DNA of 50,509 nucleotides from an uncultured archaeon (GTDB lineage Archaea; Iainarchaeota; Iainarchaeia; Iainarchaeales; JAAZKV01). Positions 16,373-19,045 of the stretch are shown here, one piece after another (within the stretch, counting starts at the first letter, position 1; each line of letters starts with the position of its first letter). The stretch spans positions 4,232-54,740 of the forward strand of contig CAYWUL010000003.1 in NCBI GenBank assembly GCA_964461205.1, given 5' to 3'. The notes under the pieces were generated by a model, which did not search any database, was not told the DNA's origin, and saw only the letters and a list, made by a program, of their open reading frames with translations. A program made the position numbers and the translations under genes.

Positions 16373-18103
16373 CTATTTTTTGTCTTTGATTTCTTTTTGT
16401 AGTTTTTCGATGAACTTGTCTGTTTTCATTTCTTCTTGTTTTCCTTGTCTATCTCTTATTGTAACACTCTTTGCTTTCACTTCTTTTTCTCCAACAACTA
16501 TTATGTAAGGGACTTTTTGTTTTTGCGCCTCGCGAATTCTATAACCAAGAGATTCATTTCTGTCATCTAATTTGCTTCTAATTTCTTTGTCAATTAATGT
16601 ATCGTTTAATTCTCTTGCATATTTTGCGAATGTTTCTGCAACAGGAATTATTACGATTTGCCTTGGTGCAAGCCACAACGGGAACGCGCCGCCAAAATGT
16701 TCGATTAATATTCCAACAAATCTTTCAAAGCTTCCAAATGGGGCTCTGTGAATCATTATTGGTCTGTGTTCCTTTCCATCTTTTCCAACATAATTCAAAT
16801 CAAATCTTTCTGGCAAATTATAATCTAATTGTATTGTTCCTGTTTGCCATTCTCTTCCAATAGAATCATTGATTACAATATCTGCTTTTGGACCATAGAA
16901 TGCTGCGTCTCCTTCTTCAATTGTGTATTTGATTTTTGTTTCTTTTAGAACTTCAATAATTTCTTTTGTAGCTTTTTTCCATGATTCTGTTGAACCAACA
17001 TACTTATTGCTTTTTGGATCTCGCGTTCCTATTCTTACTCTGAAATCTTTTAGTCCAAGAGTATTCATTACATGCATTACTAATTCAAAAACTCCTGCAA
17101 ATTCGCTCTTCACTTGTTCGTGTGTACAAAAAATGTGTGCGTCGTCTTGTGTGAATCCTCTTACTCTTAATAACCCACTTAATTCTCCACTCTTTTCGAA
17201 TCTATATACTGTCCCCATTTCACTTAATCTTAATGGGAGTTCGCGATAACTTCTTTTTCCTTTCATATAATATTGTATATGAAAAGGGCAATTCATTGGT
17301 TTTAATAAATATTCTTCTTCGTCAATTTTTATTGGAGAATACATCATTTCTTTATAATGTTCATAGTGCCCAGAAATTTTGAACAATTCTAATCTTCCAA
17401 TGTGTGGGGTCATTACAAAATCGTATCCTCTTTTTTGTTGTTCTTTTATTAAGAAATCTTGTAATTGCATTCTTAGCATTGTTCCGTTTGGTGTCCATAT
17501 TGGTAGGCCTTTTCCGACTTGTTCACTTATCAAATAAAGGTCAAGTTCTTTTCCAAGTTTTATATTTGAGTTTTCTTCTGCTTTTTTTCTATTAGCAATC
17601 CATTGATCTAATTCTTGTTTTGTCTTAAAACTAATTCCATATACTCTTGTTAGTTGTGCATTTTTTTCATTACCTTTCCAGTATGCGGAAGAAATTTTTA
17701 ATAATTTTACTGCTTTTATTTCGCTTGGTTTTTCTAAGTGTGGTCCCTTACAAAGATCTGTGAATGATCCGTTAGAATAAACAGTTACTTTTTTTTCACC
17801 CGCCTTTTCTAAATCATTAATCATTTCAACTTTGTATTTGTTATCTTTGAATAATTCTCTTGCTTCTTTTATTGTTTTTTCTTCACGAACCATTTTTCTG
17901 TTTTGTTTTACAATGTCCTTCATTTTCTTTTCTATTTTTATTAAATCTTCTTCTTTTATTCCTTGTTTTAATTCAAAGTCATAATGAAAACCGTTTTCTA
18001 TTGGCGGTCCGATAGCAATCGTCGCGGTTGGATAAATCTCCTTTAATGCTTCTGCAAATATGTGTGCTGTTGTGTGCCAAAATTTTTCCATTGATTTATC
18101 CAT
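16373..18103 (-). CDS. thrS: Threonine--tRNA ligase, bacterial-type, lacking the N-terminal TGS domain
   Basis: HTTAH and DLCKGPH editing domain, KPMNCPFH, LRVRGFTQDDAH, AFYGPK, IHRAPFGSFERF, anticodon-binding domain; GGAGG RBS. Confidence 0.97.
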   Translation of the reverse strand: MDKSMEKFWHTTAHIFAEALKEIYPTATIAIGPPIENGFHYDFELKQGIKEEDLIKIEKKMKDIVKQNRKMVREEKTIKEARELFKDNKYKVEMINDLEKAGEKKVTVYSNGSFTDLCKGPHLEKPSEIKAVKLLKISSAYWKGNEKNAQLTRVYGISFKTKQELDQWIANRKKAEENSNIKLGKELDLYLISEQVGKGLPIWTPNGTMLRMQLQDFLIKEQQKRGYDFVMTPHIGRLELFKISGHYEHYKEMMYSPIKIDEEEYLLKPMNCPFHIQYYMKGKRSYRELPLRLSEMGTVYRFEKSGELSGLLRVRGFTQDDAHIFCTHEQVKSEFAGVFELVMHVMNTLGLKDFRVRIGTRDPKSNKYVGSTESWKKATKEIIEVLKETKIKYTIEEGDAAFYGPKADIVINDSIGREWQTGTIQLDYNLPERFDLNYVGKDGKEHRPIMIHRAPFGSFERFVGILIEHFGGAFPLWLAPRQIVIIPVAETFAKYARELNDTLIDKEIRSKLDDRNESLGYRIREAQKQKVPYIIVVGEKEVKAKSVTIRDRQGKQEEMKTDKFIEKLQKEIKDKK

Positions 18104-18120
18104 AATTTAACCTCCAATAT

Positions 18121-18164
18121 AACAAAAATCCTGCTCGAAAACCTTTTTAAAATAGATTTTGAGC
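18121..18164 (-). promoter_or_regulatory. Putative attenuator hairpin between the leader peptide and thrS
   Basis: On the - strand: GCTC-AAAATCT...AGGTTTT-C-GAGC immediately after the leader stop, followed by AGGATTTTTGTT. Confidence 0.55.
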
Positions 18165-18221
18165 TTACGCCGTGGTCGTAGTTGTAACAGAAACAGTTTG
18201 TGAACTAGTAACTACATCCAT
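18165..18221 (-). CDS. Thr-rich leader peptide of thrS (MDVVTSSQTVSVTTTTTA)
   Basis: 18 codons with 7 Thr, including 5 consecutive (ACA ACT ACG ACC ACG); lies directly upstream of thrS. Confidence 0.8.
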   Translation of the reverse strand: MDVVTSSQTVSVTTTTTA

Positions 18222-18244
18222 AATATAATTCCAACAAATAGTTA

Positions 18245-18252
18245 TTTATAAA
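18245..18252 (-). promoter_or_regulatory. TATA box for the leader-thrS transcript
   Basis: TTTATAAA with 23 nt between it and the leader ATG, the spacing expected for a leaderless archaeal mRNA. Confidence 0.55.
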
Positions 18253-18295
18253 CTCGTTAAATTTGAATGTAATAATTTGTATAGTTTGATATTAT

Positions 18296-18408
18296 TTTAT
18301 CTCGTTGCTCTTTTGCATGGCCAATTCCGTATGGCCGGTCCGGAATACGCTTAATGTGTTACTTTCAGTGACACAACAGAGAATGTTTATCTCGTTGCTC
18401 TTTTGCAT
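18296..18408. repeat. Perfect 23-bp direct repeat (18296-18318 and 18386-18408) flanking element E3
   Basis: TTTATCTCGTTGCTCTTTTGCAT occurs twice. It spans the last codons and stop (CKRATR*) of ORF 18387-18839. Confidence 0.95.
18319..18386 (+). repeat. Structured element copy E3 (68 bp)
   Basis: GGCCA-ATTCCGTA-TGGCC-GGTC-CGGAAT, then GTGTTAC-TTTCA-GTGACAC, ending CAGAGAATGT. Confidence 0.92.
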
Positions 18409-18839
18409 CTTTCTTTTCCACAAATAGAATGAAATTCTGTACAATAAGTATTCCCGTCAACAGTTTTTTTGTATTTACAATTTTCCCAAGTAGCATTTCC
18501 ACAAAAAGTATCATTACTGCCTCTAATAACGTCTGCAATAATATTTCCATGCCGATTATCAATTTTTTGGTTTCCTCGGTGGATAATTGTTTCTTGTCTT
18601 CTTGGTATTTCTTCAACAACCGTTGAGTTTTCTTGTAAAGAATTTGTGGGTTTTTCGATTTGTGTTTCTATCCTTGATTCTTGTTGGTTGGCCCGATCTA
18701 TGGTTTCGCTTGATACTTGGTTTCCTTGAGTAGTATCAATTATTTGTCCTTGAGATCCAGAATTCTTTTTTTCTTCAAGTTTTTGTTGTATAAGTAGGTT
18801 AGTTCTTCTTGTGTCTTCAACAAAACTTTTAAAGGCCAT
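18387..18839 (-). CDS. Hypothetical protein with a polar linker and C-terminal Cys cluster
   Basis: 150-aa ORF with five Cys in the last 45 aa. Confidence 0.7.
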   Translation of the reverse strand: MAFKSFVEDTRRTNLLIQQKLEEKKNSGSQGQIIDTTQGNQVSSETIDRANQQESRIETQIEKPTNSLQENSTVVEEIPRRQETIIHRGNQKIDNRHGNIIADVIRGSNDTFCGNATWENCKYKKTVDGNTYCTEFHSICGKERCKRATR

Positions 18840-18943
18840 AATAGAACAAATTCTAAAAACAAATAAAAAGCTATTGACTAGTGGAAAATCGAATTTAAGT
18901 AATTAGTTTAAGTAATTTTTTGATTATTATTATTATTGTTATT

Positions 18944-19045
18944 ATGAGAACTACTTGCCCAGTTTGTGGAAGTACTAAATACAAGTTGATTCAAAAAGAG
19001 TATAAATGTGCCAAATGTCATTTTGTGAATAAGGTGGTAGGTTGA
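18944..19045 (+). CDS. 33-aa zinc-ribbon microprotein (not in the ORF track)
   Basis: MRTTCPVCGSTKYKLIQKEYKCAKCHFVNKVVG: CPxCG...CxxC. Confidence 0.75.
   Translation: MRTTCPVCGSTKYKLIQKEYKCAKCHFVNKVVG

Follow-up and report, generated by a model that had tools for sequence, protein, structure and literature searches.

The 50,509-nucleotide (nt) stretch of DNA analyzed here, referred to as the window, comes from an uncultured archaeon and carries on its minus strand thrS, a gene for threonyl-tRNA synthetase (ThrRS). Upstream of thrS lies a short upstream open reading frame (uORF) in which 7 of the 18 codons specify threonine (Thr), 5 of them consecutively. An initial annotation, made from the sequence, had proposed that this uORF encodes a Thr-sensing leader peptide that regulates thrS. 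The anatomy that it described is present: the run of five Thr codons uses all four synonyms, a hairpin begins at the stop codon, and the hairpin is followed by a T tract, a GGAGG Shine-Dalgarno (SD) motif and thrS (Table 1). The genome assembly that contains the window, G000, has a size of 0.78 Mb and is 85% complete; the GC content of the window is ~31%. DNA of the host is present in lake-water metagenomes X1-X5. The assignment to an archaeon holds, based on neighboring Nre_N/Nre_C, archaeal-type LeuRS and class I LysRS. The ThrRS itself is of the bacterial type, with an editing domain and no TGS domain, and shares ~50% identity with ThrRS of Bacteroidota and other bacteria.

Table 1 Features of the thrS leader, cognate leaders elsewhere in G000 and other sequences discussed (positions without a prefix are in the window; C, contigs; L, loci)
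Feature	Position	Strand	Basis or remark
Dyad-like element TATACAAATTATTACAT	18283..18267	-	~15 nt upstream of uORF TATA box; seen in six-leader alignment
TATA box P1 of leader ORF, TTTATAAATA	18252..18243	-	begins 31 nt before uORF ATG at 18221
Leader ORF before thrS (Thr-run leader), 18 codons plus TAA, MDVVTSSQTVSVTTTTTA	18221..18165	-	translation; tail scan; probably leaderless
Run of five Thr codons, codons 13-17, ACA ACT ACG ACC ACG	18185..18171	-	one codon before stop
Hairpin I: start-codon region UGG.UGUAGUUAC with Thr tract GUUACAACUACG.CCA	18220..18173	-	predicted fold
Hairpin II, 11 pairs, free energy (dG) -9.5 kcal/mol	18164..18133	-	predicted fold; first base directly after TAA
TATA-like box TTTTAAAAA, possible proximal promoter P2	18152..18144	-	in hairpin II loop, ~48 nt before thrS ATG
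T5 tract	18128..18124	-	separated from hairpin II by 4 nt; candidate for archaeal termination, or else the T-rich element proximal to P2
GGAGG SD of thrS	18115..18111	-	sequence
thrS, 576 amino acids, ATG at 18103	18103..16373	-	domain matches tRNA_SAD, tRNA-synt_2b, HGTP_anticodon
Leu6 leader MHSLVLSRDLLLLLL (then stop) before operon of serine hydrolase and archaeal LeuRS	C7:34331-34378	+	TIGR00395, 928 bits
Asn/Asp leader MEYSSLSIAVLASISMNLNNNDNNAN (then stop) before non-discriminating aspS (Asp-tRNA(Asn) ligase)	C5:25713-25793	+	NF003483, 539.5 bits
Ser leader ...ETLLESSISS (then stop) before serS	C7:about 21043-20921	-	TIGR00414, 476.7 bits
23-nt direct repeat, two copies	18296-18318 and 18386-18408	-	first copy includes stop codon of upstream gene
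Cysteine-rich protein, 150 amino acids	18387-18839	-	no Pfam family
Short ORF with seven-Asn run (...HNNNNNNNQKIT)	~18908-19021	-	upstream of cysteine-rich gene
tRNA genes beside cognate synthetase genes	L005:3249-3320; L008:2767-2838; L334:3428-3499	-	

Transcription of the thrS uORF is probably leaderless. We profiled the promoters of G000 using the 362 genes with at least 70 nt of upstream spacer, counting TATA-like heptamers per 4-nt bin. There are 42 such heptamers at -32 to -25 from the start codons, compared with 2-11 per 4-nt bin over -120 to -33. Thus, most mRNAs in G000 should be leaderless. The TATA box that the initial annotation had placed before a leaderless uORF has the matching geometry (-31), and a TATA-like heptamer is found at -29 to -36 from the uORF ATG in 11 of the 12 complete thrS leaders identified in the archaeon's family. 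A GGAGG motif at -18 to -3 is rare in this genome (10 of 561 genes); an SD-like motif precedes thrS in all 13 uORF-bearing loci of the family.

The codons of the run are unusual for the genome, as had also been noted from the window. ACG and ACC account for 3.6% and 7.1% of the Thr codons in 756 crudely called genes of G000, or 10.7% jointly. In six uORF tails they make up 19 out of 33 Thr codons, versus 14 out of 159 in the adjacent thrS genes (Fisher test on related sequences, 2.7e-9). Among leaders the runs differ in third positions and in length (4-7 codons), yet the residue remains Thr. Such rare-codon tails would fit a pause-prone design, and the ACG and ACC codons may partly serve hairpin I. 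Out of 208 intergenic uORFs of G000 that begin with ATG, only the one in the window contains a run of three or more Thr codons.

Conservation of the thrS leader and cognate leaders at other synthetase genes

ThrRS was found in 35 of the 38 genomes of the archaeon's family, and 35 loci had usable upstream sequence. We scored uORFs of at least 6 codons within 260 nt of thrS that contain either a Thr run of at least three or at least four Thr in the last nine codons. By this criterion 13 family loci were flagged. One of them (L193) was dropped, as it holds a different ORF that overlies the end of the upstream gene. An unflagged locus at a contig end (L196) has the tail ...ITSTSTTTTQ before the stop, together with the hairpin, and was counted as partial. 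The total of Thr-tailed uORFs is therefore 13 of 35 (12 complete and one cut by the contig end), and all of them stop 57-69 nt before thrS. Examples of the leader peptides of relatives are MDVVISIKVLTTTTTTTQ, MEVVELTQTVSETTTTTTA, MARFKISKTITTTTITA and MNKIVTSQESTSESLTSTTTA. The expectation that a Thr-rich uORF would precede thrS in related genomes is thus borne out in part: the uORF is conserved, with hairpin and T tract, in 13 of 35 loci but missing in 22. Several relatives retain the promoter and a truncated uORF (for example, MKVFVTSQ and stop, then leftover Thr codons).

The uORF-bearing loci span two genera and two types of ThrRS with 46-56% mutual identity. Both types occur within the family, two genomes carry both, and the family also has two AspRS types and two LeuRS types. 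The same criterion applied to sister families of the order gave 0 of 58 loci (60 were fetched, 2 were too short, and a few start codons are imprecise). In bacterial thrS it gave 4 of 148; these four end 132-241 nt upstream, and none is Thr-tailed at the stop. The 148 bacterial loci were taken from a ThrRS search of genome and metagenome contigs, which returned only bacterial ThrRS (~45-52% identity). We considered inheritance of the leader from a bacterial thrS donor and found no sign of it in these 148 loci.

Hairpin II is predicted in 13 of 13 uORF-bearing loci. It has 8-11 pairs, starts -2 to +1 nt from the stop and has a dG of -5.0 to -12.1 in per-sequence folds. In a separate set of folds the mean is -9.5, compared with -3.7 in the 15 uORF-less loci that have a comparable TATA-like motif, where the hairpin is mostly absent (Mann-Whitney test uncorrected for relatedness, p = 1.5e-5); seven further loci lack such a TATA-like motif. 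The hairpin accompanies the uORF and is weak or absent without it, and we conclude that it is part of the uORF device rather than a general feature of thrS promoters. Across leaders, 3-5 pair types occur at several positions of the stem (the indexing is approximate); its sequence varies while pairing is kept. The loop resembles AUUUUAAAA in 13 leaders, and in all 13 the hairpin is followed by AGRA and then U3-U7, with the U tract 2-10 nt past the stem. RNAalifold on a MAFFT alignment of the 13 leaders returned no structure, the 5' arm being misaligned, and per-sequence folds were used in place of alignment-based folding to compare hairpins.

Upstream of hairpin II, 10 of the 12 complete leaders show predicted pairing between their first 30 nt and their last nine codons, through differing sequences. 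The stability of this hairpin I is modest (mean z -1.16; -0.06 for the leader in the window). The initial annotation had further suggested that the U-rich tract pairs alternatively with the 5' arm of hairpin II. The segments AAAAUCU and GGAUUUU are indeed complementary, but the pairing occurs in neither the minimum-free-energy nor the centroid structure, and in relatives it is reduced to a match of an A run with a U run. A scan for bacterial-type terminators found 0 sites.

We located 15 synthetase genes or operons in G000, named with NCBIfam, and scanned the genome for upstream ORFs of at least 8 codons that end 20-200 nt before a gene, have an intergenic tail and carry at least four identical residues in the last six codons. 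This tail scan returned 11 ORFs. Four of the 11 precede the cognate synthetase gene; the remaining seven terminate in F, K or L, residues encoded by AT-rich codons. In addition to thrS, the four comprise leaders before leuS, a non-discriminating aspS and serS; a look for such leaders at other synthetase genes was one of the checks suggested in the initial annotation. As a rough estimate, a four-way cognate match by chance would have a probability of ~1e-8, given about one to two right targets per ORF in 756 genes. In all four leader types, 0-2 codons separate the cognate run from the stop; in each of the four G000 leaders a stem begins 0-3 nt past that stop. The serines of the Ser tail are encoded by four different codons, three of which are rare, and the leucines of the Leu tail by four synonyms.

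These leaders recur in relatives. Asn/Asp tails are found in 11 of 16 aspS loci and with two AspRS types (for example, DNNNIN and NNGNNNAN at the stop). Ser tails are found in 6 of 28 serS loci (ESSLSS, GSSSS and SSESS at the stop). Leu tails occur in G000, directly before leuS in G001, and before a different LeuRS type in G006. No cognate leader was found before the Ile, Val, Met, putative Cys, putative Pro, Gly, Tyr, Trp, His, Lys or Phe-alpha synthetase genes of G000; at 7 of these 11 loci the spacer does not exceed 80 nt. The assembly, 85% complete, yielded no AlaRS or ArgRS, and GluRS lies at a contig start. Across the genus, 0 of 11 IleRS loci have a leader, and there is one weak match among 12 ValRS loci (2 of the 12 have short upstream sequence). 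This match, L345 in G001, is a Val-rich short ORF (...VQVSASVSVVFEVE) that ends 119 nt before valS in this relative only, and may be a weak Val leader or chance.

These distributions bear on whether the thrS uORF could have arisen by chance in AT-rich intergenic DNA and lack a function. At 31% GC, short ORFs and A/U hairpins occur often, and the leader in the window folds no better than shuffled sequences. A functionless ORF would nevertheless have to be kept across two genera and two ThrRS types, while being absent from the 58 sister-family loci, with none of this kind in the 148 bacterial loci and no other Thr run among the G000 uORFs. It would also have to match the cognate enzyme at four loci. 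We consider chance a highly improbable explanation.

Two further observations concern the sequences around these leaders. In G000 the TATA boxes of the thrS, aspS and serS leaders are each preceded, at a distance of 15-20 nt, by a dyad-like motif, TGTnnAnnTTGTTACAY; it is also kept in relatives and is conserved in the alignment of six thrS leaders. It may be a site for a transcription factor, possibly a shared one, or an upstream promoter element. Using a strict regular expression for dyad plus TATA across G000, only the thrS copy matched among the leaders. Separately, a tRNA gene beside its own synthetase gene is a second kind of cognate pairing (Table 1). In two relatives, a uORF-less thrS has a tRNA-Thr(TGT) gene immediately before it in the same orientation, and a tRNA-Ile(TAT) gene is ~70 nt upstream of ileS in G000.

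Ribosome position and the stop-adjacent stem

The reading that we prefer, and consider reasonably probable as a whole, is that the thrS uORF acts in cis as a sensor of Thr-tRNA(Thr) supply, as one of at least four such leaders, and that masking of the stem sets thrS expression with a homeostatic sign. That the uORF is a cognate-tRNA-sensing leader is highly likely and well supported by the comparisons of thrS loci and of other synthetase genes; for the sign of the response, the homeostatic direction is evenly balanced or slightly favored. Under this reading, transcription would start at or next to the uORF AUG, as the TATA box at -31 suggests. A ribosome would load on the 5' end and reach the Thr run, rich in rare ACG and ACC codons, and whether the stop-adjacent stem forms would then depend on its position. 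While it lingers at the last codons or the stop, the 5' arm of hairpin II would be masked. With this arm empty, hairpin II would form before the T tract, the two together making a candidate attenuator. Slow decoding of the final Thr codons would keep the stem open and raise thrS expression.

We modeled these states by masking the ribosome-covered bases in folds of the 12 complete thrS leaders. In free RNA the probability of hairpin II is 0.37-0.99 (0.64-0.99 in 11 of 12 leaders). A ribosome on the run's first Thr codon gives 0.64-0.99, one with its A site on the last Thr codon gives 0.11-0.97, and one on the stop codon gives 0.00-0.17.

Folds of the aspS leaders are comparable. In the G000 aspS leader a helix of -17 kcal/mol pairs an AAGGG purine motif with bases 3-4 nt past the uORF stop. 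When this arm is masked the helix drops to -4.5 and the purine motif before the aspS ATG is freed. A helix that would sequester the SD in this way is predicted only in the aspS leaders of G000 and G010. In the GC-richer aspS leaders of relatives the stop codon lies inside a stem a:b; masking a leads to b:c, which removes a c:d hairpin followed by U5. A shared rule would be that the leader is open and expressing when the stop-adjacent segment is occupied, and closed when it is empty. Whether the family runs a synthetase 'ribulon', in which leaderless sensor ORFs (Thr, Leu, Asn/Asp, Ser) set the cognate synthetase through a ribosome at a stop-adjacent stem, is in our view an even call.

Several points weigh against the reading that we prefer. 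The 22 family loci that have no Thr run, and the remnants that keep a promoter and a truncated uORF, indicate that the device is dispensable and has decayed repeatedly. The relatives are non-independent samples, and the gene calls are crude (longest ORFs). A lax test, which counts at least four cognate codons in any 8-codon window in any frame at the 15 loci, gave 4 observed versus 2.1 expected (P = 0.12). Thus, the signal lies in the architecture and not in codon runs as such. The 141-nt leader in the window folds no better than shuffles (z +0.79; 162 of 200 shuffles at least as stable). The thrS leader has no second, mutually exclusive hairpin, and neither inspection nor constrained folding found a partner for the 3' arm. 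Sequestration of the SD, considered as the thrS mechanism, is unsupported, as the unpaired probability of the SD barely moves between states (in L001, 0.52 for free RNA, 0.59 with a stalled ribosome and 0.67 with one at the stop; the other 11 leaders have similar values). In the model hairpin II survives a stall on the first Thr codons, and if timing were dominant starvation would lower, not raise, read-through. Archaeal RNA polymerase terminates at T tracts without hairpins. Lastly, the hairpin II loop, its A-rich 5' side and the T tract fit an ordinary promoter profile, and the start of thrS transcription is possibly downstream of the uORF.

The timing argument leads to an alternative with the same sensor and the opposite sign: a translational-coupling gate, in which only a ribosome that reaches the stop melts the stem, and scarce Thr-tRNA lowers thrS output from a long transcript. 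Production of the synthetase would then depend on decoding having succeeded. The modeled probabilities agree with it, because only a ribosome on the stop abolishes hairpin II, and one stalled on the first Thr codon has no effect on it; the SD-sequestering helix of aspS behaves alike. The stop is also ~44 nt before the end of the T tract, near the spacing of the trailing ribosome in expressome structures. Such a gate would, however, be positive feedback on an essential enzyme, unlike every synthetase control known to us (T-box, pheST attenuator). If arrival time alone counted the run could sit anywhere, yet it is 0-2 codons from the stop in all four types. At that distance, a ribosome that pauses on the final cognate codon covers the stem's first bases. 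We regard the gate as unlikely. Because the cognate runs reach within 0-2 codons of the stop, we favor the homeostatic model, with the stem held open while the last codons are decoded slowly.

The promoter-like character of the hairpin II loop raises another alternative, namely that there are two units: thrS is transcribed from a proximal promoter (TTTTAAAAA, in the loop) and the uORF transcript ends at the T tract, with an indirect effect on thrS or none. Indirect routes could be promoter interference or a small RNA or peptide acting elsewhere. A TATA-like motif is present at -44 to -53 from thrS in 13 of 13 uORF-bearing loci. In five uORF-less loci the same motif is at -28 to -31, the distance that fits a leaderless thrS; four of the five have no SD-like motif and the fifth (L022) has only a weak AGGA. 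The flanks of the loop TATA match the G000 promoter profile, being A-rich before the box and T-rich 19-27 nt after it, and serS leaders carry GGCATTTAAAA directly after the hairpin, ~44 nt before the gene. Many relatives have lost the Thr run, which shows that thrS can be expressed without it. Based on these sequences, thrS may own a proximal promoter, in which case the leader unit would add to or interfere with P2.

Full separation into two units leaves several observations unexplained, however. These are the cognate runs at four synthetase loci, the joint loss of hairpin and uORF, and the occurrence of a strong thrS SD only in this architecture within a mostly leaderless genome. In G000 no comparable TATA-like box lies between the aspS uORF and aspS itself, and the predicted sequestration of the aspS SD requires a single transcript. 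We consider independent units quite unlikely, and retain the reading in which the uORF and the stop-adjacent stem act together on thrS.

Surrounding sequence, known systems and significance

Beyond the leader, the 23-nt direct repeat has its two copies on either side of ~67 nt of GC-richer sequence that holds two small inverted repeats. A weak match to a C/D-box snoRNA-like Rfam family (27.6 bits, below threshold) overlaps this sequence. The arrangement resembles that of a small insertion that duplicated its target; it could also be a small RNA. The 3' ends of genes similar to that of the cysteine-rich protein in Table 1 (...CGKEKCKRA...) are found upstream of thrS in many relatives, so the neighborhood is conserved. 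The seven-Asn run of the short ORF further upstream is not terminal and has no evident cognate link.

T-box riboswitches of Firmicutes synthetase genes bind tRNA directly at a single specifier codon, without translation. They share a purpose with the proposed leader, which would likewise sense charging of the cognate tRNA and set the synthetase in cis via a terminator-type stem. At the E. coli thrS operator, ThrRS binds a tRNA(Thr)-like stem next to the SD and represses its own synthesis via a mimic of the anticodon arm; the gene is the same and here, too, a structured 5' region lies beside the SD. These systems suggest a further alternative, in which the leader RNA is an operator for a protein (ThrRS on a tRNA-like hairpin) or for uncharged tRNA (as in a T-box) and not a translated sensor. 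Hairpins I and II are conserved RNA structures, and the upstream dyad-like DNA element suggests additional factor-mediated control. The thrS leader shows no T-box: an Rfam scan of 17900-18900 with E up to 10 gave four weak unrelated matches, with no T-box and no Thr, Trp, His or Leu leader family among them. The loop of hairpin II (AUUUUAAAA, and similar in the 13 leaders) does not present an NGU mimic of the Thr anticodon within a 7-nt loop, and unlike the E. coli operator the region holds an in-frame ORF of Thr codons. Each run sits in frame within an ORF that opens with an ATG at leaderless distance from a TATA box and closes with a stop, and third positions and length of the runs vary while the residue stays Thr. 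An operator of this kind is very improbable.

Leader-peptide attenuation is a textbook bacterial mechanism that needs coupled transcription and translation and hairpin terminators. The classical ribosome-mediated attenuators include E. coli thrL, trpL, hisL and the pheM leader of pheST. As in these, the thrS leader has a short ORF rich in cognate codons, a stop that abuts structure and a hairpin with a U tract before the gene, and for some of the relatives' aspS leaders folding predicts three alternative pairings. Unlike them, the thrS leader has one stem and no antiterminator/terminator pair, its uORF is apparently leaderless and not SD-led, and the archaeal polymerase and termination factors differ. 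Synthetase genes are shared targets (pheST, and leuS and trpS with attenuators predicted in Streptomyces; PMC1262725). A literature search found no archaeal leader-peptide attenuator and no thrS leader peptide in any domain.

One of the nearest systems is the mycobacterial 'Cys ribulon' of polycysteine leaderless short ORFs (10.1101/834739). The likenesses are a leaderless short ORF as first cistron, consecutive codons of one amino acid, several loci with one sensor logic and a downstream RNA duplex affected by a paused ribosome; the SD-sequestering helix predicted in the aspS leader is the same idea. The differences are that the host is an archaeon, that the targets are synthetases and not biosynthesis genes, and that four amino acids are matched to their own enzymes. 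In addition, the thrS SD is not predicted to be sequestered; a stem and then a T tract take this place.

If the reading is correct, ribosome-based sensing of amino acids exists in Archaea, built on leaderless mRNAs, and this would be the first ribosome-mediated attenuation system described in the domain. Hairpins beside T tracts could then modulate archaeal termination or initiation in vivo. The four leaders would provide paralogous and compact test cases, each of less than 130 nt, for the interplay of polymerase, ribosome and RNA structure in archaea, and they suggest a search rule for further leaders: a same-residue tail, a stop codon and a stem. The Asn/Asp leader before a non-discriminating AspRS would be a sensor that reads the indirect pathway to Asn-tRNA. 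For the family, the leaders would serve the synthetases of host-dependent, biosynthesis-poor cells, in which tRNA charging may be the sole readout of amino-acid supply.

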